A DNA stretch of 64,000 bases from a virus. How positions within the stretch are numbered: the first letter of the stretch is position 1; every line of letters starts with the position of its first letter. Shown piece by piece: positions 838 through 38,600 of the stretch. The stretch is from positions 1 through 64,000 of IMG/VR virus record IMGVR_UViG_3300036760_000689; one strand, written 5' to 3'. Position numbers and translations under genes: made by a program. A model generated the notes under the pieces. The model was not told the origin of the DNA, ran no database searches, and was given only the letters and a program-made list of their open reading frames with translations.

Positions 838-1239
838 TTAGGTTGGTTTTGGGATGTGCTCTGCTTCTGCCCATTCGCTGTACGCTTTGAGTCTGTGTCT
901 TCGCATGTTGGCTCTTATCTCTCCGTTGGTGGCGATCCATAGGGCTGGGAAGTCTGGCCTATGCTTGTGACCGGCGCTTACCCAGGCCAGGTTGATGGTG
1001 AATGCGTTTCTCAGGGTAAGCTTGTGGCGGATGGTCTTGGGCATTGTTCTGGTCATAGCTCTTAGCCAGGCATTCATGGCTGTCGTCATGGCTTCATAGG
1101 CTGCGTTGGCTTCCTTCACTGTTCTGACTGCTCCAACGTCTACCATGATCTGGCACAGGTCCGCCTTGTTCGTGCGATGAGTTATGCCCATGATGTTCTG
1201 TTTGATGACCGGCGCTGTCCCTCTCTCTTTGTTTTCCAT
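838..1239 (-). CDS. Small basic protein, possibly divergent HU/IHF-like DNA-binding protein
   Basis: N-terminal TNKADLCQIM...TVKEANAAYEAM helix pattern resembles HU helices 1-2; basic; divergent from the early promoter. Confidence 0.35.
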   Translation of the reverse strand: MENKERGTAPVIKQNIMGITHRTNKADLCQIMVDVGAVRTVKEANAAYEAMTTAMNAWLRAMTRTMPKTIRHKLTLRNAFTINLAWVSAGHKHRPDFPALWIATNGEIRANMRRHRLKAYSEWAEAEHIPKPT

Positions 1240-1326
1240 GGCTCTAGTCTAACCGTTGGACTGCCAGAACCATACAACTTTTTCGCGCGATCCTGTCATA
1301 TCGTCCCCATGTGGCAATAATTTATG

Positions 1327-1355
1327 TTGACAAGTGAACGGCATTCGTGTATATT
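1327..1355 (+). promoter_or_regulatory. Sigma70-type promoter for the early gene cluster
   Basis: TTGACA-17 nt-TATATT. Confidence 0.75.
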
Positions 1356-1528
1356 TATCCCATGCCACACGCCACCAACACACAGACACAACCGCTTGCA
1401 ACCGCTACACTTATCCGCTTCGCCGGAGTGCTACGCACACTCGAAACCCTACGCTTACGCGCGTGCCAACGCTTGCAGTCGCAACACTTTACAACGACAC
1501 CTGTATGTTTTCTTGGGAGAGAGAAACC

Positions 1529-1684
1529 ATGCGTTACTATCTGCGTCAAGATTTCTTCTGCATCCTCTACGCTTACGATAGCTTGAGTGATCGTCTTATC
1601 GCGCAAGCTCTTGACATTCACAATCTTCTAAGCATGATTGAACGCTTGGGTTACACGCGCTGGGATCATCACTTGGTTACCTAG
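1529..1684 (+). CDS. Hypothetical early protein (MRYYLRQDFF...)
   Basis: Strong GGAGAGAGAAACC-ATG ribosome-binding site shared with neighbours. Confidence 0.65.
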   Translation: MRYYLRQDFFCILYAYDSLSDRLIAQALDIHNLLSMIERLGYTRWDHHLVT

Positions 1685-1694
1685 GAGAGAAACC

Positions 1695-1904
1695 ATGCGA
1701 AAACTATTCGACCGACCTATGTCTCACAAATACAAGGGATGCACCGTCTTCGCTTCGCGCGGCGTTCTTGGGCTTCCTCGTTATGTCCTTTGGCGTGGCC
1801 GCAATTTCGTCCGCATCGTTCAACCGAAGTTTCAGCACTTCGCTGAGCTGGTGATCGATTGGCGAAATAATCAAACTCTGCGTGACATGTACACAGATTC
1901 TTAG
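1695..1904 (+). CDS. Hypothetical early protein (MRKLFDRPM...)
   Basis: AGGAGAGAAACC-ATG RBS overlapping the upstream stop. Confidence 0.65.
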   Translation: MRKLFDRPMSHKYKGCTVFASRGVLGLPRYVLWRGRNFVRIVQPKFQHFAELVIDWRNNQTLRDMYTDS

Positions 1905-1914
1905 GAGAGAAATC

Positions 1915-2316
1915 ATGAGAGATCCAAAAGATCAATTGATTACCACCATGCGCCAATATCTCCTCCGTTGCGTCCCTATCATTCGCGCCGCCGATACGCC
2001 CTTCCGCGAAGGCGAATTACTCGCCGATGCTATCGAGGCTCTGTTTGAATCCGCGCCTTGCATCGTCTGCGGTGAGTCCGGCCCATTCCACGCGTCCCAT
2101 TGCATGGTCGGACCAGCTAACCCGCTTCATACTCTCACTACCCCTTGGATGCCTTGGACGGATGGCAACGCCTACCGTTATGAGAATGGCTTCCTTCGCA
2201 TGGCTCCGCTCACACCCGGCGGCCACATCATCACCGATGAAGTCGTTGACATGGCGACGCTGCCCTACGATCCTCCCGAGGATATTGTTGAAGCTCTGCG
2301 CCGCCTTGTTCGGTGA
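1915..2316 (+). CDS. Hypothetical early protein with CxxC motif
   Basis: AGGAGAGAAATC-ATG RBS; CIVC...HASHC. Confidence 0.65.
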   Translation: MRDPKDQLITTMRQYLLRCVPIIRAADTPFREGELLADAIEALFESAPCIVCGESGPFHASHCMVGPANPLHTLTTPWMPWTDGNAYRYENGFLRMAPLTPGGHIITDEVVDMATLPYDPPEDIVEALRRLVR

Positions 2317-2385
2317 TTCCCGATTCCGCCACACTCCCCCGAGCGTGGCGCTACCGCGAATCAACGCGGATTAGGAGAGAGACCA
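2314..2385 (+). repeat. Repeated intergenic two-hairpin element, copy 1
   Basis: TGATTCCCGA-hairpin-CCGCG AATCAA CGCGG-AGGAGAG-ATG. Confidence 0.75.
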
Positions 2386-2558
2386 TGAAGATTATCAACG
2401 TTGTCACTATCATCAGCGGACCCAAGGACTCCCGAGAATCATCGACCATCCGCATTATTCGCAACAACAAACTGACCTATCTGGGAGCCCAACGCATCGT
2501 GTCGCGCTCGTATCCTGGAGCAACAGTTGAACGCATTGAGACCTTCATTCAATCGTGA
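2385..2558 (+). CDS. Hypothetical early protein (MKIINVVTII...)
   Basis: Strong RBS; bounded by two copies of the intergenic element. Confidence 0.6.
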   Translation: MKIINVVTIISGPKDSRESSTIRIIRNNKLTYLGAQRIVSRSYPGATVERIETFIQS

Positions 2559-2637
2559 TTCCCGAGGACAAGCGCCCACAACGTCCAACCGTTGGACGCT
2601 TTCCCCGCGAATTAACGCGGAGAAGGAGAGAACCAAA
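2556..2637 (+). repeat. Repeated intergenic two-hairpin element, copy 2
   Basis: TGATTCCCGA...CGTCCAAC C GTTGGACG...CCGCG AATTAA CGCGG...AGGAGAG. Confidence 0.75.
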
Positions 2638-3056
2638 TGACCGAGGAAAGCATCACTCCCAAACACGAAGAACCCGAAGTGAAACATTGCATCATGTGCG
2701 GCAAGGTCGCCAACACGTCTATTTGCTACGACGGCGAATACCATCCAGCTTGCAAGCTCTGCCGCGACCTGCGCGCAAAGGATGCGATGATGCAGGAGAT
2801 CGGCCCGAGTGTTCAGAAGCTCTTCGACCATGTGAACGGTCACTCTGGCCGCGCATCGTCCGAGGCTTTCATCCAGGCATTCCAAATGCAGCATCGCACC
2901 TCGCAGCAATCGTTCTTCAGTACCTTCATCGTTCCTTTGATCCTGCACGAAGCCGGGCTCAAGACTGGCTGGTATGATCTGAGGAACGAAGCGACCGTAA
3001 ACCTCTGCAAGCGCCTTGCCAGCGCGTGCAAGGATTCCCCCTTACCCTTGTACTGA
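2637..3056 (+). CDS. Hypothetical protein with N-terminal zinc finger
   Basis: CIMC...C...HPACKLC; RBS. Confidence 0.7.
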   Translation: MTEESITPKHEEPEVKHCIMCGKVANTSICYDGEYHPACKLCRDLRAKDAMMQEIGPSVQKLFDHVNGHSGRASSEAFIQAFQMQHRTSQQSFFSTFIVPLILHEAGLKTGWYDLRNEATVNLCKRLASACKDSPLPLY

Positions 3057-3135
3057 TCCTGGAGCGCGCGGCATGTCTACCCGTTGGACATGCCGCAAGC
3101 CCTTGGATACAACCCAAGGAGAGGAGAGAGACCCA
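3054..3135 (+). repeat. Repeated intergenic two-hairpin element, copy 3
   Basis: TGATCCTGGA...GCGGCATGTC/GACATGCCGC...CCTTGG ATACAAC CCAAGG...GGAGAG. Confidence 0.7.
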
Positions 3136-3719
3136 TGAAAGAACATCATTACGCCATCGGCCCAATTTGGGGACGTGGCAAAAGTATCACAGCGGCTAAG
3201 GATGATGCCGCCAACCAAGCCAGCGCCGCGCTATGCGGATCATTCGACGCCTTCTATGCCAGACATCAGAAATTCAGTCTGATCGTTTGGCGCTACCCGC
3301 AGACGGGCTGGACATATCGAATTGAGCAAGACAACCTGGACAGCGATTCTATAAGCAACCTCACAATGTGCTGCATGTCCGGAGATTCCCGCGAACAGTG
3401 CATTGCTAGCGCCCTAATGCATATGGCCCAACTTGCATGGTCCGGAGACGAATCAGAGACTTCCCCACTGTTGACCGGATTGCCAGGCAAGCAAGCGGAT
3501 TATACGTCTTGGGTACGCTGGCAGAAAGGTTATCGCATTGCCAAGCTGACAGGACTATCCGACAATGACGCCCATCAGCGTGCCATGGAATTCTATCAAG
3601 GTTCCTTATCCAATTGCACATGTTGCGATCCTGCCCTTGCAAATAGAATGGACCGCATCATTGCAGACCGAGATGCCGCCACAAAAGCGGAGGCTATTGT
3701 TGCCCGCGCAACAGCCTAA
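3135..3719 (+). CDS. Hypothetical early protein
   Basis: GGAGAGAGACCC-ATG RBS; 194-aa ORF. Confidence 0.7.
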   Translation: MKEHHYAIGPIWGRGKSITAAKDDAANQASAALCGSFDAFYARHQKFSLIVWRYPQTGWTYRIEQDNLDSDSISNLTMCCMSGDSREQCIASALMHMAQLAWSGDESETSPLLTGLPGKQADYTSWVRWQKGYRIAKLTGLSDNDAHQRAMEFYQGSLSNCTCCDPALANRMDRIIADRDAATKAEAIVARATA

Positions 3720-3723
3720 AGCA

Positions 3724-3799
3724 TGATTCCCGACTCACCGGCACAGGCTTAGGCTTGCGCCGGTCTGCCGCGAATTAACGCGGAAAAGGAGAGAAACCA
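3724..3799 (+). repeat. Repeated intergenic two-hairpin element, copy 4
   Basis: TGATTCCCGA...ACCGGCACAGGC/GCTTGCGCCGGT...CCGCG AATTAA CGCGG...AGGAGAG. Confidence 0.75.
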
Positions 3800-5100
3800 T
3801 GAGCAAATGGAAATACACCGAACCAACGCCCAAGCGAGCGGCCATGAAAGCAGTGGAAGCCGCTATCGCCAAACTATCGAGACTCAATCGCCAATACACC
3901 GAGGTTACCGGCATCATCGGCAAGCCAGAGACCGAACAGCGGTTTACCTTCGAGGTTCTCATCGGCGGAGGCAACAAGTTTCAGCCCTTGATTGCAAACC
4001 TTGGCGGACTGTTTAACTGGGAAATCAACGCCAACAACATCGCCCAGGTTGCCGAGGCTTTCACCGCCGCTTATGAGGAATCCAAAGATCTAGTCGCCAT
4101 CAAGGACAAGCGTATCACCCAGGAAGCCGCCGACAAACAAGCCGCCGAACGTATCGCGCAGGATATCGAGCGAGACCAGAAAACCAACGACGCGTCCGCG
4201 CGAGCTTGCGCCAACGAAGCAATCATGAAGCAGATCACCCCTGCGAATGCAGCAGCCGTGATCCTAGCCGAACTGAATGAAGATCAGTGCGACATCCAAA
4301 CCGACTACTTCAGCCACAAGACCACGCGCACAGTCTTGATTGGCTTCCGGACTGGCAAGAAAGAGGATTTCCGCCAACTTCGCGCAGCCGCCGGCAGATT
4401 CGAGGAAACCAAGCACCTCGGCACAGGTTGCGACCGCTTCCACGTTAAGATTGTATTTGCCAATGCCATCGTCGATATCCAGGGTAATCAGTATCACGAG
4501 GGTTTCCCTTCTCATTGGCACAAAGAGGAAGAACGTGTTTTCTACACCCGCGCGGAGGCTGACGCTTACGTACTAGCACACAGCGCCTTGGAATCTATGG
4601 GCTTCGGCGAGCTTACAGCTACCTTCAGATTCCAAATCAATCAGTATTCCGTGGAACACCGCGAAAACTACAGCATGGGTTCCGGCAATTACCTGAAGGA
4701 CGGTCACACCGATTCTTCGGGTTGGCGTGTCTACTCCCGCGCTCTGCCCTTGGATCGCACCTTATTGGGCGATCCGAATCTTCAAATCTGCTGCGAGGCC
4801 TTAGCCGTTCCCACTCCCGAGCCAGTCTCTGAAGGTTATTCCGCTACGTCTCATTGGAACGGGGATGTGAAGGTATCTCGCAACATTGAGAAGGACGGGA
4901 TTGAAATCAGATTCAAAGTAAAGCCCAGCGCCGACGTTCTTTCACGCCTCAAGGGCATGGGCTACCGATGGTCGCCCTATTCCTCGTGCTGGTACTGCAA
5001 GCACTCGCCCCAGCGCCTGGCTGATGCTCTGCGCTTTGTCCAATCCCTAACAGGAACGGCCACGCAGGTCACAGGTAATGATGAGGTCGCTATCGGGTGA
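3799..5100 (+). CDS. Mobile-element protein of unknown function, polyvalent-protein-like domains
   Basis: DIQTDYF and EHRENYSMGSGNYL motifs, plus C-terminal IRF.KP.....LK.MGYRWS....WY module recalled from phage/ICE early proteins. Confidence 0.6.
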   Translation: MSKWKYTEPTPKRAAMKAVEAAIAKLSRLNRQYTEVTGIIGKPETEQRFTFEVLIGGGNKFQPLIANLGGLFNWEINANNIAQVAEAFTAAYEESKDLVAIKDKRITQEAADKQAAERIAQDIERDQKTNDASARACANEAIMKQITPANAAAVILAELNEDQCDIQTDYFSHKTTRTVLIGFRTGKKEDFRQLRAAAGRFEETKHLGTGCDRFHVKIVFANAIVDIQGNQYHEGFPSHWHKEEERVFYTRAEADAYVLAHSALESMGFGELTATFRFQINQYSVEHRENYSMGSGNYLKDGHTDSSGWRVYSRALPLDRTLLGDPNLQICCEALAVPTPEPVSEGYSATSHWNGDVKVSRNIEKDGIEIRFKVKPSADVLSRLKGMGYRWSPYSSCWYCKHSPQRLADALRFVQSLTGTATQVTGNDEVAIG

Positions 5101-5181
5101 TCTTGGAGGATAGCTGCCCAACCTCCAACCGTTGGACAGCTTCCCCTCGGATCATCCGAGGCAGAGGAGGCAGAAAAACAA
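5098..5181 (+). repeat. Repeated intergenic two-hairpin element, copy 5
   Basis: TGATCTTGGAGG...AGCTG..TCCAACCGTTGGA CAGCT..CCTCGG ATCAT CCGAGG..GAGGAGG. Confidence 0.7.
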
Positions 5182-5555
5182 TGAAACACATATCTTGTCC
5201 CAACAATCCCAACCACATGAACTTTACGGCAACTGTGCGCGAGGTACACAAGTGGGCAGTGGATCAGCATGGCAACTACGTCAGTGACCTTGGATGCTTC
5301 GACACCAGCATACCCGATGAATTCGCTTGCTTGGAATGCGATATTCCAGCAGAGGTCACTGAAAGCAATGGCAAGGTTAATACTCGCTTTACCCCCGAAC
5401 AAAAGACCGCCATCCTGGTGGCCCTGCGTTACTATCAAGGACAATCCCAGAAACATCCCGAGATGGCAGAGCGTTTCCACCTACTTACCGAGACGGAACC
5501 CTTGTCACCTCGAGCCATTGACGAACTCTGCGCGACAGTCAGCTTCCAACCATGA
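5181..5555 (+). CDS. Hypothetical early protein
   Basis: GAGGAGG RBS; CPNNPNH...CLEC. Confidence 0.65.
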   Translation: MKHISCPNNPNHMNFTATVREVHKWAVDQHGNYVSDLGCFDTSIPDEFACLECDIPAEVTESNGKVNTRFTPEQKTAILVALRYYQGQSQKHPEMAERFHLLTETEPLSPRAIDELCATVSFQP

Positions 5556-5613
5556 GCCTGGAGGACAAGCGCACAGTGATCGCTGCGCGCTTTCCCCTTG
5601 GCTTAGTCTAAGG
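5553..5613 (+). repeat. Repeated intergenic two-hairpin element, copy 6 (no adjacent RBS)
   Basis: TGAGCCTGGAGGAC AAGCGC...GCGCTT TCC CCTTGG CTTAGT CTAAGG. Confidence 0.6.
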
Positions 5614-5758
5614 AATGACGGTTACGGATTTGCTTGGTTGCCTTTGCAGGACTTCCGTCATGTCGTCACCGGAATAACGACAAACTAAAAAGTGCCTTGA
5701 AAGTGCAGTCCGCCGGCTGGGAGCGGATCCCAGCCCCTAACCTGGAGGAGTAATAACC

Positions 5759-5980
5759 ATGAATGGACTACTACGGACCTGTTCGACGTGTCATCGCAGA
5801 ATTGCCGGAAACCATCCTTATCAGTTCTTTGGAAGTTTAGGGCCAGAACCAACTTACGCGTGCGGATCTTGCATCAAGAGAGCGTTATCCGTCATCAGCA
5901 TGTATCGCCGACATTACAAGATTCACGACGCGGATTCTGTAAGTTGTCTGCTGAACATGATGTGCGAAGAATCCGAATAA
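5759..5980 (+). CDS. Small zinc-finger protein
   Basis: GGAGGAG RBS; CSTC...CGSC. Confidence 0.6.
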   Translation: MNGLLRTCSTCHRRIAGNHPYQFFGSLGPEPTYACGSCIKRALSVISMYRRHYKIHDADSVSCLLNMMCEESE

Positions 5981-5999
5981 GGCAAAGCCATTTGCGGTA

Positions 6000-6028
6000 T
6001 TGACATCGGTATTATTTTCTGGTAACAT
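6000..6028 (+). promoter_or_regulatory. Sigma70-type promoter
   Basis: TTGACA-17 nt-TAACAT with TG extension. Confidence 0.65.
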
Positions 6029-6051
6029 AACGCAATGCCGTGGAGGAAACC

Positions 6052-6330
6052 GTGAAATATTTTGAAGGCATGATTACCATGCACAACGGACGCTATGAAC
6101 GATCATTTGGCGTCCGGCTATCCGCAAGCAACTGGAGCACAGCCGTCAAGGCGGCTATGGTGCTGGCCACAACGGCATTGAAAGATCATTTCAAAGCAAT
6201 GCGAATGAAAAAGAGGGTCCACATTGAGATGATCCATATGACTTTGGTTCAGTATAAACCGCCAACTGATGCCGCGACTGGATTGGCTGCAAAGGATCGG
6301 CTTCCTGGGCACGCTTGGCTTTCCAAATAA
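6052..6330 (+). CDS. Hypothetical protein
   Basis: GGAGG RBS then GTG start, directly downstream of the promoter. Confidence 0.55.
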   Translation: MKYFEGMITMHNGRYERSFGVRLSASNWSTAVKAAMVLATTALKDHFKAMRMKKRVHIEMIHMTLVQYKPPTDAATGLAAKDRLPGHAWLSK

Positions 6331-6483
6331 AGAGCTTTATGAGAAAAGTGATCCATCTAATGTATCCGCTATCATTGATAGCCCAAATCAAAAAAAATCG
6401 GTGGTGACAAGTGAGCGCATCCACTCGAACGGTTTGTTGAAAGATGGATTATGATCGCTGGCACGTAACTGTCCCTCCACGCC

Positions 6484-6822
6484 TTGTCACATGTGCCACA
6501 TGTAAAAAATGGATGCAGTCGCACGGATATTCAGATCGCGTGCGCCAACGCAAGGAGATCTTTCATAACAATGCAACCAAACGATGCGGACCTTGAACGT
6601 AGCGGCCTAGAATGCCCGATTTGCAGTTCTGAATTATACGTTTGCAAGAACGCTACAGGATCGCCCGAACTTTGGCTCCATTGCCTTTGCTGTCTGCAAA
6701 TAGGGGCGAGGAGCGAGTTTGATAAGATGCGCCAATGCATCAAACATTGTTCTGATTCCCGCGAGGAATCCAATCGCCAATTGGCGCTCATATCCGAGCG
6801 AGATATTGATGCTTTAATCTGA
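6484..6822 (+). CDS. Hypothetical zinc-ribbon protein (start uncertain)
   Basis: CPIC...CLCC. Confidence 0.45.
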   Translation: MSHVPHVKNGCSRTDIQIACANARRSFITMQPNDADLERSGLECPICSSELYVCKNATGSPELWLHCLCCLQIGARSEFDKMRQCIKHCSDSREESNRQLALISERDIDALI

Positions 6823-6860
6823 ATTTGTTTTGGGTCACCGACAAGGTCTAAGGAGAGCCA

Positions 6861-7085
6861 ATGCACATCTGTCGGATTTGTCATCACTGGATGGGCAATG
6901 ATGTCATGCTCCAATATGCCCGCTGCCACTGGGTCCATTCAGAATGCGGGCTGAAAAAGTGGGGGGCGGCATTTTTTGGCCGCCTAGCGCTCTGGCAGTT
7001 AAAGCTAATCCCATTTCTCTACCTGGAGCAGTACCGCCTCCTGGAAGCATATGAAACCGAGTGCAGGAAAAGGGAAAAGGTCTAA
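6861..7085 (+). CDS. Small Cys/His protein
   Basis: AAGGAG RBS; CRIC...HWVHSEC. Confidence 0.55.
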   Translation: MHICRICHHWMGNDVMLQYARCHWVHSECGLKKWGAAFFGRLALWQLKLIPFLYLEQYRLLEAYETECRKREKV

Positions 7086-7147
7086 CGTTGGATTCATGGT
7101 TGGCCAAACGCAACATCTCAGATTCTCTCCCTGAGTAGTTTGGCTAG

Positions 7148-7180
7148 GGGCGCGAAGGGGCGTACCTTCGCGCCCTTCTC
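7148..7180 (+). terminator. Possible intrinsic terminator hairpin
   Basis: GGGCGCGAAGG-6-CCTTCGCGCCC followed by TTCTCT (weak U tract). Confidence 0.4.
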
Positions 7181-7235
7181 TGGTTGCTAAAAAGAGGATG
7201 AAGAGTAGAGAAAACGGAGGAATAGGAGCCGCAGC

Positions 7236-8227: not shown

Positions 8228-8812
8228 ATGAGCAAGCTTTTTCTTTCCGAGGCGAGAATCAACGAGTTGCTATCATTGGCAGAGCCATACGCGCGCGATA
8301 ATTGCCTTTTCCGGCTGGCACTATGCACTGGCCTGCGCGTAAGCGACCTCATAAAGCTGCGAATCTGCCAGGTTGTAGATACGGATGGTTTGCCAATTCG
8401 ATCTTTGCGCGTGAAGATGAAGAAAACGAAGAAATACATCGAAAGACCGCTGCGCGAGGATTGCAGGCAAGCCATTGCGAAATACGTGGCCGAACGGCAG
8501 GATCGGAACCCTTACCTATTCCGACCTGACTCCCACAATTCGAAGGCAAGCCTGCATCCGATAAGCCGACAGGCGGCGCACGGGATTTATCGGAAGTATC
8601 TCGAAAAAATGTATCCGTGGAGCGTCCTGCAAGGTACGGGATGCCATGTTACACGAAGATCCGTTGCCAAGATCATCAGCGACAAAGCCGGAAGGATCGA
8701 ACCAGCGACGCAATTTCTGGGGCATCGTTCGATTCAAACGACGATGCATTATATCGATATGGATCAATATGGCCAGAAGGCGGATGGAATCGTACAATCG
8801 CTTTCTTGGTAG
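8228..8812 (+). CDS. Tyrosine recombinase, catalytic domain only
   Basis: TGLRVSDL (R), KKTK (K), HVTRR (HxxR), FLGH, TMHY (Y); 194 aa with no N-terminal core-binding domain. Confidence 0.9.
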   Translation: MSKLFLSEARINELLSLAEPYARDNCLFRLALCTGLRVSDLIKLRICQVVDTDGLPIRSLRVKMKKTKKYIERPLREDCRQAIAKYVAERQDRNPYLFRPDSHNSKASLHPISRQAAHGIYRKYLEKMYPWSVLQGTGCHVTRRSVAKIISDKAGRIEPATQFLGHRSIQTTMHYIDMDQYGQKADGIVQSLSW

Positions 8813-20324: not shown

Positions 20325-21680
20325 TCATCGATCGTACCACCTTTCAGCCGAACCCTCGCTGTCCTGCCATAAGCTGGCAAACTTTGTAAACTGGCCAATG
20401 AAAGCGAGAGCTACCTCTCCTGTCGGGCCGTTACGTTGTTTGGCAATGATTAACTGAGCCACGCCCGCATGATCTTCGCCTTCCATTTGGTGGATAAGGA
20501 GGGCAATATCACAATCCTGCTCCAATTGGCCGGATTGTCTCAGGTCCGAGAGTCGGGGAATTTCCTCTTTTCGCTTGTTTGGCGAACGGTTCAACTGGGC
20601 ACAAGCGATTATAGGAGTCTTCATGCTTCTCGCCATGAACTTTAAATGCATGGAGTTATAGGCTACCTTCTGTTCATCAGTCGCCTTATAAAGGTGCTTC
20701 GGAGATTGAAGGAGCTGAACATAATCAAGGAGAATGGCGTCCAACGGTTGGCGCAGGCGACGGATTCGCGCTCCGATATCATGGGCATGGATCCCGGTAC
20801 TGTCGTCAATCCATACCTTCCATTGACTCATGGTCCCGGCCGCACGCCCTAATTTCGCCCATTCATCTTTGTTGACAAACCCGGTCAGCAACTTCATCAA
20901 TGGAACCTCAGACACGATGCTAAATAGCCGCATCATAATCATTAAGCGCCCCATCTCGATCGAAAAGAACAAGATCGCCCTACCGTCTTTGGCCATGTTG
21001 GCAAGGATTCCAAGCAAAAGGGATGTCTTGCCCTGACCAGGACGAGATGCGATGATCATATAATCATCTGAGGCAATCCCGGCCGGAATAAGGCGGTCAA
21101 GTCCTTCAAATCCAAGGCTCAAACCCGTCCTGATATCTCTCTGTTTCAGATCAGCAATTCTCTCAACCTGTTGATAAGCCTCGCTCACCGCTGTTTCCAT
21201 CGAGATTGGCCCAACGGCAGGTTCCAAAGCTGCATGGGCCTTGTCTATGGCCGCGATCAGATCGCCAGAGATCTCCCTGAAGGATTCCTCAGCCTGATAT
21301 GACCTTGTCATTGATTCCATGGAGGCTTGGATCAATCTCCTGAGGGCTGCCTTTTCTCGAATGATTTCAACATATTGAGGTGCCAGACCATCCTTGAAAT
21401 GCGGCATGCCATCGGTAAGAGATGCAAGATATGCGGGACCTCCGCATTCCTCAATCTTGCCATCAGTTCGGAGTTGAGACAGAACGGTTATCATGTCTGG
21501 CGATCTGCCCTGGGCCTGGATGTCCTTGGCTGTCTTGAAGATCACGCGATGGGACTGAGAATATAAATCATCTGGCTCAAGATCAAAATCGATTCCGCCC
21601 TCTACAAGAACGACTGCCAGGATGATTCTCTCGACCTCAAGGTCATAAGGTAAAGTCTTTTCGAGGCTTATATCGCTCAT
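20325..21680 (-). CDS. dnaB: Replicative DNA helicase DnaB
   Basis: ASRPGQGKT, FSIEM, LDYVQL, AQLNR, DLRQSGQLEQDCD, KQRNGPTG. Confidence 0.95.
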   Translation of the reverse strand: MSDISLEKTLPYDLEVERIILAVVLVEGGIDFDLEPDDLYSQSHRVIFKTAKDIQAQGRSPDMITVLSQLRTDGKIEECGGPAYLASLTDGMPHFKDGLAPQYVEIIREKAALRRLIQASMESMTRSYQAEESFREISGDLIAAIDKAHAALEPAVGPISMETAVSEAYQQVERIADLKQRDIRTGLSLGFEGLDRLIPAGIASDDYMIIASRPGQGKTSLLLGILANMAKDGRAILFFSIEMGRLMIMMRLFSIVSEVPLMKLLTGFVNKDEWAKLGRAAGTMSQWKVWIDDSTGIHAHDIGARIRRLRQPLDAILLDYVQLLQSPKHLYKATDEQKVAYNSMHLKFMARSMKTPIIACAQLNRSPNKRKEEIPRLSDLRQSGQLEQDCDIALLIHQMEGEDHAGVAQLIIAKQRNGPTGEVALAFIGQFTKFASLWQDSEGSAERWYDR

Positions 21681-26134: not shown

Positions 26135-29100
26135 CTATCCGACCGTGACGCAGCCGTCCTCAATTCGAATCTGCGAATCGGCGAGATCCACTACCCTTGA
26201 TTGATGAGCGATAAAAAACAATTTGGAAAAATGCCCGACCTGTCGCGCACGACGGAGCATAGTGATGTACCGGATGGCATTTTCATCGTCCAGAGCACCG
26301 CTTACTTCGTCCCGCCAGATCGAAGCCCATCCAACGTTAGATTTCTGCCGATTGTAGAGGGCAGTGGCCAGGGCGGCAGCTTCGCTGACAATCGTTCTCT
26401 CACCTCCAGAGAGATCATCAACGCTGCCCTCTCTGTTTTTTTCGGCATCATAGACGTACAGATCAAAATCATCTGTAACGCCCCCTGTGGCCGTGGGCCG
26501 TTGCGTCACAAACTTGATTGAAAACCTTGGTCCGAAGCACGAATATAGGAGTTCCTTGTTGGCGATGTCGCTTACCGCCGGCCCTGCGGCCGCGATCTCT
26601 AAGCTCTGGATTTCCATCTTCCCAAATGCCTTTGCGAGGAAATTCCAGTTCCTATGGTCCTGAAAAGTTTTCTGAAGGTGGGGCCTTATCTCCTGACTCT
26701 TCTTGTGAGCTTCCAGAATCTCATTCAGGATCGTTTCCGCGCGAGTCAGCTCATTTTGAGCAACCTCAAGATTGGTCCGCCTATTTTCCAGATGATTCTC
26801 TGCCTCCTGCATGGATATCTGGGCGCGACGGGCCTCATCTTCTGCCGCCTTGGCACTTCGAAATTCTTGGGAAGTCTTCTCGAGGCTATTGGCCACCAGT
26901 GCAGAATCCGCTTCCCAGTTCATTATTCGATTTTTGATCTGGCCCATCTGCCCTTCCGCTACTTCTGCTGCGACTTTCCGGACGGTAAGGCCATGCAAAG
27001 AATCGGCCATCTTTTTCAATTCCGCCTCTTGTTTGTTTCGCTCCTTTGCCGTCTCTTCACCTTCCGCAACAGCAAAAGAAATATTCTCAATATCCACGTT
27101 CACAAGAGATAGGTCCATTTGGAATCCAGCCAAAGCCTGTTTCACTTCACCAATCTTAGTTTCTGCCGCTTCCGCTTTAGCTAGTGCATCGCGATCCCTT
27201 TCCATCATAGCAACCCTGCGTTCCAATTCCGAAATGGCTAGGGTGGTCTTACGTATTTCCGATTCAATGACGTGTTGACCTTGAGGGTCTGGCCTTCGGA
27301 GTTGTTTCATCTGTTGATCGCATGCGAGCATCCGGGATTGCGCCACATCAATATCACCAGAAATCTCATCAATAGAATCTCTACCTTTGATGGCGTTTGC
27401 CAAAAATTGACACGAAACATATTCCCCTTCCCCGTGACAGGGGACAACATTGATGATGAGCGAATCTCGTTGTGCTCGTTGGAGGGTGATCGTATTGACC
27501 GCCCTAATCTTTTCGCTCTCCGCCCTAGTCTTTTCAATCATCAACGTTTGCTCGGCATATTCTTTTATCATTCGCTGATATGTAGCCAACTCCTGCTGGG
27601 AGCGCGCGAGTTCCCCGCGTAAAGCTTGAATGTTCCGTCTTCCCTCCTCCAATCCTTGAGCCATATCCCTCAACTTCGGCGCTGAATCCGCCATTTCCTT
27701 GAGTTTGACTATCAGATCCTCACTCGTAACGATATCCTCATCGAGTCTTTTATGACGATGTTTGAGGGAGAGCAAGGTATTTTTGGCCGCGTTTGCAACG
27801 GCCATCTTGTTTGCCAGACTGGCGATCTGCTCCTTGGTGGCGATTATCTCACCTTCAGAAAACGCAATCAGATCTCCGAGCATGGGTAGTTGCGAGACAA
27901 TTAATTCCGCATCCGACAATACTTTCCTCTCGGTTGCGATATCGGTCTTCAACTTTGCAGATCTAGAAGAAAGCAGATTCATTTGCTGGGTGATTACAGG
28001 AAGAATAGCTGCTTTATTCTTCAGCGCCGAATAAATCGATTGGACATCTTTGTAATCGGCCTCGGCGTGAATAACTTCTTGTCGCAGATTATCGCGGCTG
28101 TTGTGGAGCGTCTCAACATCGGGGACCATTTTCGAGGCGGTAACCTGAAGCATTTCATGTTGTCCGGTAAGCCGTTGCATTTCAAACTGGCTGGCGTCGG
28201 CATGTTTTCCAGCCAAATCCGAAATCTTTTGAAGGCGATTCAATCCCAGCATGCTTATGAAAAGGGCCTTGCGATCAGCTTTCTCCAGTTCGATGAATGA
28301 TCCCCTTTTATTCTGGGATCCGAAGGAGGATGCCAGCACCATCTTAGAACTGCCGAAGAGTGTCTGCATGATCTCATCGAATGGTCCCGTATTGCCATCC
28401 TCACCGCCTATGGGTTTACCATCTTTGTAGAGGTATACCTTCATTGATCGCTTTTCGGCATTGATCTGGAGAACAGATAGATAATGATCGGTTCCCTGGT
28501 CGAATGCGAAACTGATTTTGGCATCCTTGCCCCGACAGTATTTATAGATGCTGGCCTCGCGGTAGGGGAAGTATCGATAAAAACTGGCGAACATGCTTTC
28601 GACGAACATCGTCTTTCCGCTATTCGACACAACAACTCCATTTGCGATGAAGTTGTGGCTCCCTGGAACCTCCATGTCGAACGTTTCTTCTTGGCCACAC
28701 TCGTCAATGCTGATTACTTTGTGATTGAACTGCTGCACTGTATGAGAATCTTGTCTATCTCTTATGGGCAGTCCAAATCTTCGCAGCCAATTGCGCACAC
28801 ATGTATCAGTACAACCAAACCGAGATGCGATCTGAGGCGCACTCAATCGATCCGTGAGATACATCTGCTCAAGCTGCGACTTTTCCGCCCATGGCCGATC
28901 CTGTTTATGCCAATAGTTCTCCTGCCCCCTGATCCTTATACTTTCTGACAGTGACCGACGAGGGATAGAGAACCACTCAAGCCAATAACCTATTGTATGG
29001 TCGCTCACTCCCAGAGCATCCGCTATTTGCACTGTACTTAAACGCTCAATACAGTACATTTGAGTGAGCAATTCTTTGTTGGCCCACGGTTGGTCTTGGG

Positions 29101-29896
29101 CATCCCAGTATTTTCTGAGTCCCAATTTGTGCGCCGCCTTGATTGCTGGATCAGAATGGCTTGCCCGTGATCCGGCACTGATCGCCGCCTTAACATCCTC
29201 ACTGTGTCGTTTTCCGAGCATCCCTCTTGGATGGATCTCGTAATGCGGCGGACGAAGCCTTCCGTGCAAGGCCCCGTGATCAACACTTAACATTCTAGCG
29301 ATGTTGAGAGGATCATTATTGAGTGGGTCGAGGTCGATATGATGGGGATCCTCGTTGTCCAACAATGGACTGCCGGAGGTGAACGCGGCAACCATTCGGT
29401 GTTCGCCTTCAAGGTTTCTATCTTGATGTACAATGGCAGCATACTTGCCATCCCTTATCCTTCGCGTCAGAGGCATGATTCGATCTCCTGGCCGCAACTC
29501 TCCAAGAGGTCGCCATGTGCCGTCAATGAGCATGATCAGGTGTTCTTTCGTTCCTATTAACTCTGCGGGAGGAGCAAAGCGACCTTTGGGCCTGGTGAAT
29601 CGCACCCTGAATACATCTTTGATCCCCGTACTCCAAACCTGCGATGCATGATTGAGAATAGTTTTCCTTGATTCTCTGTCATGCGAATAAACCAAAGGTC
29701 TCGTTCCGACCAATTCCTTGATTGGAATTCCGTGGGGGTGAAGAGTCAGGTTTCTCGGAACATCAATCATCGTGTCACCCACGAGACATCCATTCCGTCC
29801 AACGATGGCCACGACATCCCCCCCTACGGAATCAAAAGAGAAATCCACATCTTCGAATGGTCCGATCTGTTTGAGCCGAATCGAGCGGGGTATCAT
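26135..29896 (-). CDS. SbcC/Rad50-like SMC ATPase containing an intein
   Basis: Walker A GRNG|SGKT split by the intein, long coiled coil, LSGGE signature, DEVSGALD, IAH. Confidence 0.9.
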   Translation of the reverse strand: MIPRSIRLKQIGPFEDVDFSFDSVGGDVVAIVGRNGCLVGDTMIDVPRNLTLHPHGIPIKELVGTRPLVYSHDRESRKTILNHASQVWSTGIKDVFRVRFTRPKGRFAPPAELIGTKEHLIMLIDGTWRPLGELRPGDRIMPLTRRIRDGKYAAIVHQDRNLEGEHRMVAAFTSGSPLLDNEDPHHIDLDPLNNDPLNIARMLSVDHGALHGRLRPPHYEIHPRGMLGKRHSEDVKAAISAGSRASHSDPAIKAAHKLGLRKYWDAQDQPWANKELLTQMYCIERLSTVQIADALGVSDHTIGYWLEWFSIPRRSLSESIRIRGQENYWHKQDRPWAEKSQLEQMYLTDRLSAPQIASRFGCTDTCVRNWLRRFGLPIRDRQDSHTVQQFNHKVISIDECGQEETFDMEVPGSHNFIANGVVVSNSGKTMFVESMFASFYRYFPYREASIYKYCRGKDAKISFAFDQGTDHYLSVLQINAEKRSMKVYLYKDGKPIGGEDGNTGPFDEIMQTLFGSSKMVLASSFGSQNKRGSFIELEKADRKALFISMLGLNRLQKISDLAGKHADASQFEMQRLTGQHEMLQVTASKMVPDVETLHNSRDNLRQEVIHAEADYKDVQSIYSALKNKAAILPVITQQMNLLSSRSAKLKTDIATERKVLSDAELIVSQLPMLGDLIAFSEGEIIATKEQIASLANKMAVANAAKNTLLSLKHRHKRLDEDIVTSEDLIVKLKEMADSAPKLRDMAQGLEEGRRNIQALRGELARSQQELATYQRMIKEYAEQTLMIEKTRAESEKIRAVNTITLQRAQRDSLIINVVPCHGEGEYVSCQFLANAIKGRDSIDEISGDIDVAQSRMLACDQQMKQLRRPDPQGQHVIESEIRKTTLAISELERRVAMMERDRDALAKAEAAETKIGEVKQALAGFQMDLSLVNVDIENISFAVAEGEETAKERNKQEAELKKMADSLHGLTVRKVAAEVAEGQMGQIKNRIMNWEADSALVANSLEKTSQEFRSAKAAEDEARRAQISMQEAENHLENRRTNLEVAQNELTRAETILNEILEAHKKSQEIRPHLQKTFQDHRNWNFLAKAFGKMEIQSLEIAAAGPAVSDIANKELLYSCFGPRFSIKFVTQRPTATGGVTDDFDLYVYDAEKNREGSVDDLSGGERTIVSEAAALATALYNRQKSNVGWASIWRDEVSGALDDENAIRYITMLRRARQVGHFSKLFFIAHQSRVVDLADSQIRIEDGCVTVG
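28622..29788 (-). mobile_element. Intein (389 aa) with HNH, NUMOD3 and two HTH repeats, in the SbcC Walker A
   Basis: Starts CLVGDT, ends FDMEVPGSHNFIANGVVVSN|S; internal HHIDLDPLNN HNH motif. Confidence 0.9.
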
Positions 29897-35676: not shown

Positions 35677-38600
35677 TTACTCGGGCGGTTCGGGCAATCG
35701 TAATGGCGACTCCCCAGTCGGGGGAGGCATCATCCTTCTAACCTTTGTCGCTTTATATTCCTGAAGCGTCTTTTTGGCAATCGCATTCATCTGAGCCTGT
35801 TTGGTTCTGATGAAGGTGTCGATTTGCGTCTTGGTGTATTTCGGATTCTTTTGCATCGCATCGATCTGTTTCTGGTAGGCCGTCAATATCCTTGCACAGC
35901 CGGCAAACTTAGGTGCAAAAAAAGCATTGGGATAGAGTTGGGAAGCTTCCGCATAGGACATGCCCTTTTTCATCTGGTAATCGCGGACCCGTTTATCTCG
36001 CGTAACTTCCGCGTTGGCAATAAAGAAATCCGCCACCTCAGCTCCCGCACCCCTCTTTGCTTCACGACTTTGGGCTTGTTCTTTGAGTTGCAAACGCTCA
36101 GGTCTTCGTTCCTCCTCTGTATGGCCATATCCAGTACTCTCGTTGATGACCCTTCCGGCCAACCGTCCAACCGTTGGATCTATTTGCGTTAATATTTGGT
36201 AAAAGCTCTTATTGCTTATATCGTAGGTTTGGAAATTGCCAAGACCCAACTGGTTCAACGAGAACAGTACGAGTTTGCCCGCCATGGCCGGTTTGTCTCC
36301 CGCTTCATATACATCGCGCGGAAAAATGGGCATACCGCGATAGGTATCTGGCGGGTTCTGGCCTGCCAACGCTCGACCCACGGTGATCGGAATCTGGATC
36401 CAGGGAGTGGGCGATGGCAATTGCGACACAACATGATTATATATGTTTGTCAGCATTTCCGGATCGTCTTTGGCATATCCATCCATCAGTTCGTTTATGA
36501 TCCCCCAAAGCATCCTGCATCCTTCGTCCAAGGGTACTTGAAAGCTGATCGCTTCCCCTAACCTGTTCAGGCCGAACAGAACGTTGAGATACATCCGCTT
36601 TTTATAACCCGTGATGCCGTCCCAGGCCCACTTGATCTTTTTGCCCCAATAGGGACCAAAGATCTTGACGGCGTAATATCCGAAAATCAAGTTCGCCGCT
36701 ATCAGCACGCTCAGGACTTTCATCGTTCTGTGGAAGAATCCCGATCTGGTTACGGGATCAGCGATAAGATTAATCTCGCTGTGCCATCCCTGGATGAACA
36801 TAGTCGGAAACGCGAGGAGCCGGTTGAATGTCTGTCCCCAACTTCCCTTGCGATACCATGCCGGGGTCCCTGTGTTGCGCCGCATGTTCATGCCAAGTCT
36901 TGGCCCGGTTTCCCCTGCGGCCACCCGGACTTGATGGCCACTAACCTTACCCAAGGTTTCCGCGAACTCTGCGACGTAGGCAAGTCCGCCCAAAACATTC
37001 TTGGCCCCACGGTACATCCTTATCGTAGCGCGCTTATCCAACGTCCCGTTTGGCCTGTAGATTCCTGCGCGCTTCATTGTTAGATTGAAGGCGTCATGCT
37101 CATATTCGGTCTCGGGGGCTTCCAACGTCGGAGCTGATATTTCGTCGTTTCTGATCATCTCACGCAAGAGTGGATCCCCGTGATTCTTCATGTGCCGATA
37201 TACATGAATGAAGGAGCGCCTGTAGGCATCGAGGAGATAAGTAAAATCTCCAGCCCCCCATTCACGCCAGAGCTTCTGAAGCATATTCCCGGGAAGAAGC
37301 TCAAAAGGCAACGCCCTGAAATTTTTCACAAAGTCCCTGACTGGATTGCCAAACGCACCGAAGGACAAGTTGTAAAGAATAATGACCTTCCACCAGAGTT
37401 TGTGAACCAGATTCATCCACTGCGCCCAATCCTGTAGGGCCTCAGCGTTCGGATGATTGATCCCATCGGCCAGGTACTTATCCACCCAATATCCCTGTCG
37501 CCTGCCATCCTCCATCATCTCAACGATGTCAAATCCCTCAACGGCCTTACCATTGGCATCCACGGGGCGTTCCCAAGTTACTGCGATGTCGGTAGGATGC
37601 TGTCGTTTGGCCTTATAGATTTCATCTGGCCAGAATTGTTTCCAATTTTCGATAAATGACCGGCGCGCACCATAGACGACTATCATTTTGATAAGGGCAA
37701 ACCGCATTTTGAGATCAGATAGAATCGGGTTTTCAAAGGCCCCCGTATAGCCGATCTGGGCCTTTACTGTCGGGCTGACGTATTGATCGATATATTTTTC
37801 GGCCACGAATTTGACGTAGTTGTACTTGTCCTCCTCGAACTTTTTACGCGCTCGCTCTGGATAAATCTGGAGATCGAATCCTTTTTCCACGAGTTCCCAG
37901 GTAATGTCCTCATAGGCATGAGCAGCTTGTTCCAGAGCTGCGAATTTTTCGGGACCAATCCGCTCCTGGAATCGGTCCAATGTTTCTGCCGCAAATTCTC
38001 CACCAACAATTTTGGGATTGGCCACATCCGCGCGCCCGGTCGCAGTTCTGTGGAGATACATGTAGAGACCCAAGACGATGTGTGGCCCATAATGCTCCGC
38101 CGTCAGATCCTGGTAGATCGTGCCAGCAATACTGGGCAAGTCCGACGCCTTGAAACCCAAATCCTCGATCGTGATTCCGGCCTTCTCGATGATTTCCTGC
38201 ATTATCTCGCGGTTGACCCTATCGGCGAATTCCCATGTTCTGTTGGCAATGTTGAACGGGAGCGCATCGTATTTGATCTCGGGATTGTCTTTGTCGTCGA
38301 TGGCAGTGGGTTTATACTTCAGCAACCCCTCAATGTGTTTGTCGAGCATCCATAAGCGATAGACGAGTTTGCCCTTGACGCTTCCTATGAATCCCTGGCC
38401 CTTTAGTGGTTCTTTCAACTCCACAGCCGCAGATGATCTTTCCGCATCTACCAACATACCGAGCGTTCTGACCAGCCGATCGTCCAACTTTTCTTCCGTA
38501 GCTCCCGCCATCATTGCCCGGAGCTTGAGGTACTCCGTTTTCACATCTGGCTTGGTATCCATGTGGGCATGGAACTCCCGATAAAACTTTGGCGCATACT

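Follow-up and report, generated by a model that had tools for sequence, protein, structure and literature searches.

What is the repeated spacer of about 75 bases that begins at the stop codon of one small early gene and leads to the next in the IMG/VR virus record IMGVR_UViG_3300036760_000689? The record represents an uncultured sediment phage with a genome of 110,116 bp, complete according to CheckV, and the first part of it (64 kb, positions 1 to 64,000) is the stretch of DNA analysed here, referred to below as the window. A single DNA run from a sediment metagenome contains all of this stretch. A sequence-only reading of the window had noticed six copies of this element and described it as a covarying two-hairpin, probably pseudoknotted structure belonging to no recognised class. 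Our analysis supports the view of an unrecognised cis-acting structured element with true covariation. We found that it forms either of two folds, that both folds are backed by covariation and exclude each other, that the element is anchored at the upstream stop codon and folds on the sense strand, presumably as RNA, and that it is restricted to the early operons of this phage and of its distant relatives.

Two mutually exclusive folds anchored at the stop codon

The structural evidence comes from 31 compact spacers of six phages, aligned with MAFFT by sequence only and not fitted to any fold. The first structure, fold A, is a long helix, numbered from the U of the stop codon, in which positions 1–22 pair with positions 61–41. 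Across the 31 copies its pairing amounts to 81.9%, against 38–42% with slid partners, and its covariation score to 0.688, against at most 0.17 in the slid controls; both sides change at 16 of the 21 pairs, and none of 500 shuffles attained these values. The helix of an individual copy comprises 18–25 bp, or about two turns (the 21 aligned positions and extra apical pairs). Its basal part, P1, in which the stop codon and about 7 nt behind it (together S) pair with a partner strand (S'), is 93.2% paired, in comparison with 30–49% for slid partners, with a covariation score of 0.578 vs. no more than 0.14, a result again unattained in 500 shuffles. In most copies the type of stop codon itself covaries with its partner (UGA with UCA or UUA, UAA with UUA, UAG with CUA). 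Three conserved non-canonical positions lie 8, 11 and 13 columns from the helix base, namely a pyrimidine-pyrimidine (Y.Y) apposition at 8/55 in 22 of the 31 copies, A.C at 11/52 in 28 and U.U at 13/50 in 14.

The second helix, hairpin 2, joins columns 52–56 with columns 65–69 (93% paired), two of its pairs alternating between G-C and U-A, and forms fold B together with the apical hairpin. The arms listed for it earlier as covarying (CCGCG/CGCGG, CCTTGG/CCAAGG and CCTCGG/CCGAGG) hold, and the covariation first seen in six copies is present in both helices of the larger alignment. The sequence-only reading had also proposed that the 5' end of the element pairs with the loop region of hairpin 2. 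This pairing is true and longer than claimed, as it extends over about 10 nt, the 5' arm of hairpin 2 among them. Columns 53–56 are common to the fold A helix and to hairpin 2 (at column 54, for example, a G faces C9 and C67, or a U faces G9 and A67), and the linker between the two 3' strands measures only 0–3 nt. The two helices are therefore mutually exclusive, and of the two options left side by side at the outset, alternative pairing stands while the pseudoknot does not.

Constrained folding predicted an energy gap between folds A and B of 3 kcal/mol or less in 24 of the 31 copies, with a median of +0.4, and for the copies of the window fold B was predicted to be equal or slightly favoured. 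When nucleotides 1–13 are masked, as by a terminating ribosome, hairpin 2 is predicted to form in nearly all copies. The ribosome-binding site (RBS) is predicted to be open in both states, with no consistent change of Shine-Dalgarno accessibility on masking of S; translational coupling by RNA unfolding was rejected on this ground. Readthrough of the stop codon into the next open reading frame (ORF) was likewise rejected, given that the stop-to-ATG distances fall in all three frames.

In the helical columns, G.U pairs number 73 and A.C combinations 18. This excess indicates that it is the sense strand that folds, and the folding molecule is presumably the sense-strand RNA. An own-versus-cross test with RNAduplex, in which the 5' end was set against the 3' region, was weakly significant (p = 0.018) because G-rich leaders pair promiscuously, and column-based counts were used instead.

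As for known RNA families, Rfam 15 (4227 families) gave no hit in the 64-kb window at gathering scores. Up to E = 10, the only match in the 1200–7200 region was one irrelevant long non-coding RNA model lying outside the elements, and the early regions of the relatives gave no Rfam match either. The earlier failure to recognise hammerhead, twister, pistol or HDV cores thus agrees with the searches at both gathering and permissive thresholds. A self-cleaving ribozyme of a new class or an H-type pseudoknot, to which the apparent loop-to-5'-end pairing had pointed, is extremely unlikely. Apart from the lack of an Rfam match and from the shared columns and minimal linker, the conserved unpaired positions are only the three mismatches inside the helix, and no invariant block resembling a catalytic core accompanies them. 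Unlike hammerhead ribozymes, the elements possess no ribozyme core, and any cut would need a protein enzyme. Nor are they plain terminators, since no T-run was found and no plus-strand terminator-like site occurs at any element; what comes after hairpin 2 is a purine-rich leader. Among the functions initially listed, a processing site, a stabiliser and a coupling switch remain the live options.

All six copies noted at 2314, 2556, 3054, 3724, 5098 and 5553 were confirmed on the plus strand. A covariance model built from the relatives recognised the five complete copies with E-values from 4e-16 to 6.5e-8 and found no further copies in the 110-kb genome. The copies are as follows:

2314–2384, plus strand: copy 1 (58.5 bits, E = 1.7e-12); S at 2314–2323 with the stop codon of ORF 1915–2316, apical hairpin, hairpin 2 at 2354–2369, RBS leader, ATG at 2385.
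2556–2636, plus strand: copy 2 (E = 4.1e-10); S at 2556–2565 with the stop codon of ORF 2385–2558, apical palindrome at 2583–2597, hairpin 2 at 2605–2620, leader, ATG at 2637.
3054–3134, plus strand: copy 3 (E = 1.2e-9); S at 3054–3063 with the stop codon of ORF 2637–3056, apical hairpin of 10 bp, hairpin 2 at 3101–3119, leader, ATG at 3135.
3724–3798, plus strand: copy 4 (72.5 bits, E = 4e-16); S opening with a TGA that is not the stop codon (true stop TAA at 3717–3719), hairpin 2 at 3768–3783, leader, ATG at 3799.
5098–5180, plus strand: copy 5 (E = 6.5e-8); S at 5098–5107 with the stop codon of the 433-amino-acid ORF 3799–5100, hairpin 2 at 5145–5161, leader, ATG at 5181.
5553–5613, plus strand: copy 6, an orphan (truncated model hit, model positions 1–56, E = 0.07); S at 5553–5562 with the stop codon of ORF 5181–5555, apical hairpin, hairpin 2 at 5596–5613.

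The 5' pattern described for these copies is present at every one of them; the 10-nt pattern alone is not significant in the window, where 13 matches face 7.9 expected. In five of the six copies the TGA ends the upstream ORF; at 3724 the true stop is the TAA 7 nt upstream. An RBS after five copies was also borne out. In every copy the apical hairpin is variable and GC-rich and hairpin 2 short. The leader AGGAGAGA..ACC and the ATG come next in five of six, while copy 6 possesses no RBS leader and no gene directly after it. Two such orphans were found, at 5553 in the window and at 9672 in relative G001, both devoid of the leader and both retaining hairpin 2.

Some apical hairpins carry a palindrome that is also found elsewhere. 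In the window, CCAACnGTTGG lies at 1251–1261, 2585–2595, 3081–3089 (partial), 5125–5135, 20741–20751 and 36167–36177, and it occurs also at G000 82757; its 9-mer core is present five times against 0.49 expected. Three elements carry it at the apex of the apical hairpin, one site is located just upstream of the early promoter, and the others are dispersed in the genome. Relatives G003–G005 possess another palindrome, GTAAACCnGGTTTAC, with 7–9 sites per genome, some of them at element apices. The dispersed palindrome might serve a regulator as its binding site or form a hairpin signal of its own.

Our first scan with the exact pattern returned 19 chance matches and one true relative, which is syntenic yet distant by whole-genome tblastn. 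Relatives were retrieved by portal and recombinase alignments; the portal alignment yielded 15 related viral contigs, among which five complete or nearly complete genomes contain the early region. The GC content of the relatives ranges from 45% to 58%, but a near-identical purine-rich leader (GGGGAAAGAGAGA) precedes the early genes in all of them, and at many junctions the spacer from stop to start measures 69–83 nt (median 75 nt). A covariance model of fold A searched against seven genomes (~700 kb) gave 45 plus-strand hits, 45 of 45 inside early operons of six phages (this one and the five distant relatives), and additionally two antisense echoes and one weak hit. Eight of the 45 were absent from the seed, and six of these eight begin exactly at the upstream stop codon with P1 kept. 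Taking all elements together, the start falls exactly on the upstream stop codon in 35 of 46, and the exceptions are mostly longer, multi-hairpin versions in the GC-rich G001. Junctions of 90–113 nt in that genome (L024; 856–963, 1234–1335, 1867–1969, 2934–3046 and 5085–5173) contain one or two additional hairpins that separate the stop codon from the core element, and the strand pairing with S' doubles there as the 3' arm of such a hairpin, resulting in a three-way competition.

Beyond these phages the element was barely encountered. A blastn comparison of the region with 50,697 phage records gave no match, the covariance model found no element in nine further viral fragments, 16 metagenome contigs and 8 distant viral loci, and the exact-pattern scan of viral contigs returned the same six phages only, plus leader-only matches. 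A scan of genome contigs gave chance hits except for one 27-bit hit on a contig in a Clostridia bin. This hit (L154, 5277–5354, plus strand) lies on a 12-kb contig of a Clostridia metagenome-assembled genome and is accompanied by the same leader. It may represent a more distant carrier or a wrongly binned phage contig, and it is too weak to serve as a host hint.

A putative RNase III site at the ends of early cistrons

The elements are located behind one strong promoter-like sequence:

1327–1355, plus strand: sigma-70-type early-operon promoter, TTGACA-17 nt-TATATT, with 11 of 12 consensus matches.

Downstream of it, eight small plus-strand ORFs extend up to about position 5600, and no plus-strand terminator-like sites were found from the promoter to about position 6000; we infer one polycistronic early transcript. 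None of the eight ORFs has a meaningful PHROG match, and the region is a typical early operon composed of genes of unknown function. Between the orphan sixth copy and the next gene lie ~145 nt of non-coding sequence with several hairpins (5614–5758), in which no T-run terminator is present; the gene that follows starts with ATG at 5759 and has its own GGAGGAG RBS. This segment could encode a small RNA or mark an operon end of unconventional type.

What could a stop-anchored, two-state structure do in such a transcript? E. coli RNase III substrates typically comprise two helical turns, and internal loops or mismatches restrict the cut to one strand, which leaves protective 3' hairpins (PMC1540722, PMC3867540). 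The elements show a helix of about two turns, mismatches in mid-helix, and a position between the cistrons of the presumed polycistronic transcript. From this analysis we tentatively favour, as the first among several readings and not as a settled matter, a T7-type RNase III processing site on the early polycistronic mRNA that would refold after the cut.

According to this proposal, S would pair in fold A with S', just upstream of the RBS leader, and S/S' would stack below the apical hairpin to give the 18–25 bp helix with non-canonical positions near its middle. Host RNase III would nick the 3' side of the irregular region, presumably as in the T7 sites. The upstream message would keep its stop codon and end in a protective 3' hairpin, whereas the downstream message would begin at S' and, its partner lost, form hairpin 2 at the extreme 5' end, before the leader and the RBS. 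The first column of hairpin 2 (52) coincides with the 3' border of the irregular region, and a cut there would place the hairpin at the 5' terminus. Cutting and refolding would also explain why two exclusive folds are conserved.

The T7 signals, reportedly R0.3, R0.5, R1, R1.1 and R1.3 of Dunn and Studier (1983), are presumably cut in the 3' strand where the upper stem gives way to the lower one; the T7 record used carries no annotation of these sites. Five RNase III signals have been described in the T7 early precursor (PMC3867540). Like the elements, they are intercistronic, belong to a terminator-free early operon driven by a host-type promoter, and consist of a helix of about two turns in which an irregular stretch separates the lower stem from the stem-loop above it; the expected products are likewise a 3' hairpin on the upstream message and a fresh 5' end ahead of the following RBS (PMC3867540, PMC1540722). 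They share no sequence similarity with the elements, which in addition carry a constant leader and whose cleavage is a prediction only. In the minimum free energy (MFE) fold of the gap between T7 genes 0.4 and 0.5 (L116, 1431–1476), the lower stem begins with the UGA stop of gene 0.4 (UGAUAG/UUAUCA). We take this hairpin to be R0.5. As it too starts at a UGA, the stop-codon anchoring of the elements does not speak against an RNase III site. In contrast to the elements with their covarying hairpin 2, the MFE fold of this gap shows no alternative hairpin reusing the 3' strand. By their description, the Bs-RNase III sites in the early mRNA of Bacillus phages SP82/SPO1 are similar as well; Panganiban and Whiteley reportedly described them in 1983 as repeated conserved hairpins between early genes cut by the double-strand RNase of the host.

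Several points weigh against RNase III processing. Cleavage, the identity of the enzyme and effects on stability are what we infer for the elements, the substrate features compared are those of the E. coli enzyme, whose specificity the RNase III of the host may or may not share, and the phage genome yielded no RNase III gene of its own. A substrate of RNase III and nothing else has no need of two nearly isoenergetic folds (within 3 kcal/mol in 24 of 31 copies), and reuse of the 3' strand in an alternative hairpin is without known precedent in T7. The exact start at the stop codon (35 of 46) likewise exceeds what such a site needs and hints at an interplay with the terminating ribosome, and the hairpin 2 of the orphan copies is left unexplained by a pure 5'-cap role for the next cistron.

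Exact stop anchoring, balanced energies and the hairpin 2 of the orphans fit a ribosome-operated switch or insulator better. In such a two-state junction, which would require no obligatory cleavage and which we regard as possible but doubtful, a ribosome at the stop codon would occupy S and free S' for hairpin 2, and on its departure S would displace hairpin 2 again. The balanced energies would mean that opening the long hairpin costs the ribosome almost nothing, while between ribosomes the rod would insulate the cistrons, blocking scanning re-initiation and exonucleases, and would offer a constant unstructured RBS leader. The flip at termination might, with the same reserve on our part, gate processing, decay or re-initiation at each boundary and make the element a plug-and-play connector for swapping unrelated early genes. 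A ribosome covers ~10–11 nt of mRNA downstream of the A site, and S, with its 10–11 nt, is about as long as this footprint. Besides the stop types that covary with their partners, the predicted formation of hairpin 2 once nucleotides 1–13 are masked argues for this mechanism, as does, to the extent that the citing paper summarises it, the finding that translational coupling within a synthetic operon is reduced by structure immediately behind a stop codon (Chemla et al., cited in PMC12548453). Against it, the Shine-Dalgarno sequence is predicted to be readily accessible in either state, with no consistent response to masking of S, no measurable output was identified, and the near-equal energies may follow trivially from the shared S'. 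RNase III processing and switching by ribosomes are not exclusive, and both can hold.

Gene-content differences at the elements

The elements coincide with places where gene content changes. No homologues of the early proteins of this phage were found in the other five phages, though the elements are conserved. In the closest relatives, G004 and G005, synteny breaks at elements, insertions and deletions are bounded by elements, and one of the breaks is an extra "gene + element" unit; a nearly identical element stands after two unrelated genes within G004. The gene-family map of the six phages places gene-content boundaries likewise at the elements. The idea that gene content in relatives changes at these sites, put forward along with the sequence-only reading, is thus supported by both the G004/G005 synteny and the six-phage map. 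Elements behind the same gene family have the apical hairpin in common even when the downstream gene differs. The apical hairpin thus tracks the upstream gene family, which assigns the element to the upstream gene and the leader to the downstream gene. In the processing scheme preferred here, the element would also act as a standard connector around which early genes are gained, lost or swapped, because its parts evolve together and it moves along with the gene upstream of it.

The first three early genes of the window are joined without the element. At these minimal junctions (1682–1697 and 1902–1917), the UAG stop of the upstream gene directly abuts the common leader (UAGGAGAGAAA, two bases, AUG). 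They lack the structured part of ~60 nt, which therefore looks like an insert; in fold A it looks as if this part would bring the stop codon and the leader back together.

Repeated stem-loops at variable early genes are known from T4-type phages, in which promoter-early stem-loop (PeSL) mobile regulatory cassettes flank variable unknown early ORFs and coincide with boundaries of insertion, deletion or replacement (PMC2839356, PMC4122927). The elements resemble them in this respect. Unlike PeSLs, which carry an early promoter, they contain no sigma-70-like match, and their conserved feature is the stop-codon-anchored two-state RNA fold. In turn, the REP/BIME sequences of enterobacteria are intercistronic palindromes that stabilise the upstream mRNA, and they share with the elements the position of imperfect palindromes just after stop codons in operons. 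REPs differ in being conserved in sequence, spread genome-wide and devoid of a covarying alternative hairpin, whereas the elements are confined to early operons.

A passive role modelled on these two systems, in which the hairpin merely blocks 3' exonucleases, the repeats provide homology for the shuffling of early-gene cassettes and hairpin 2 is incidental, would account for elements conserved among early genes that have no homologues in the relatives, for element-bounded insertions and deletions and the near-identical G004 copies, and for elements that stay with the upstream gene family despite differing downstream genes. We nevertheless consider it improbable. Compensatory changes in both hairpin 2 and S/S' are not expected of an incidental feature, no promoter-like site lies in the elements as it does in PeSLs, and insertions and deletions would hit intergenic gaps anyway, so that breakpoints at the elements are weak evidence.

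The right side of the variable early operon is adjoined by a 194-amino-acid gene (8228–8812, plus strand), found in the same place in all five relatives (45–54% identity). Its alignment shows invariant residues resembling the R..H..R..H..Y set, consistent with the product being a candidate minimal tyrosine recombinase. The layout recalls a cassette array, in that each ORF has behind it an imperfect palindrome whose mismatches are conserved and whose apex varies, gene content is highly variable and the recombinase-like gene lies to the right of the array in every relative. An integron-attC-like single-stranded DNA site served by this gene product is all the same very unlikely. It is the sense strand that carries the excess of G.U (G.T in DNA) over A.C, 73 vs. 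18; read from the antisense strand, all 73 would turn into mismatches. In attC sites it is the bottom strand that folds. R/L-box sequences are absent, hairpin 2 and the fixed RBS leader would be without a role, and any action of the candidate recombinase on the elements is conjectural.

Elsewhere the genome codes for a portal, a terminase, DnaB, an SbcD-like nuclease and a 4529-amino-acid SNF2/SprT polyprotein. An N4-like phage with hairpin promoters was considered and rejected, the 4529-amino-acid ORF being this polyprotein and not a virion RNA polymerase. A 1253-amino-acid SMC/RecN-like protein with an intein splicing domain and a helix-turn-helix (HTH) insert (Pfam PF14890, PF13384) is encoded at 26135–29896 on the minus strand.

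A structured RNA family of early phage operons

To our knowledge, a stop-codon-anchored hairpin with a covarying, near-isoenergetic alternative fold has not been described, and Rfam holds none. Intercistronic RNase III signals and PeSL-type cassette connectors are already known kinds (PMC3867540, PMC2839356, PMC4122927). The elements thus make up a well-supported structured RNA family missing from Rfam, with 45 copies in six phages and compensatory changes in two competing helices, which punctuates the most variable part of the phage genome. Should they prove to be RNase III sites, the processing model of T7 early mRNA would extend to uncultured environmental phages, with the addition of a refolding 5' cap undescribed for T7; should they be operated by ribosomes, they would provide a new link between translation termination and the fate of mRNA. 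Either reading would explain how early genes without relatives can be exchanged as cassettes under a uniform expression context, and the elements resemble the insulator parts that synthetic biologists build by hand.

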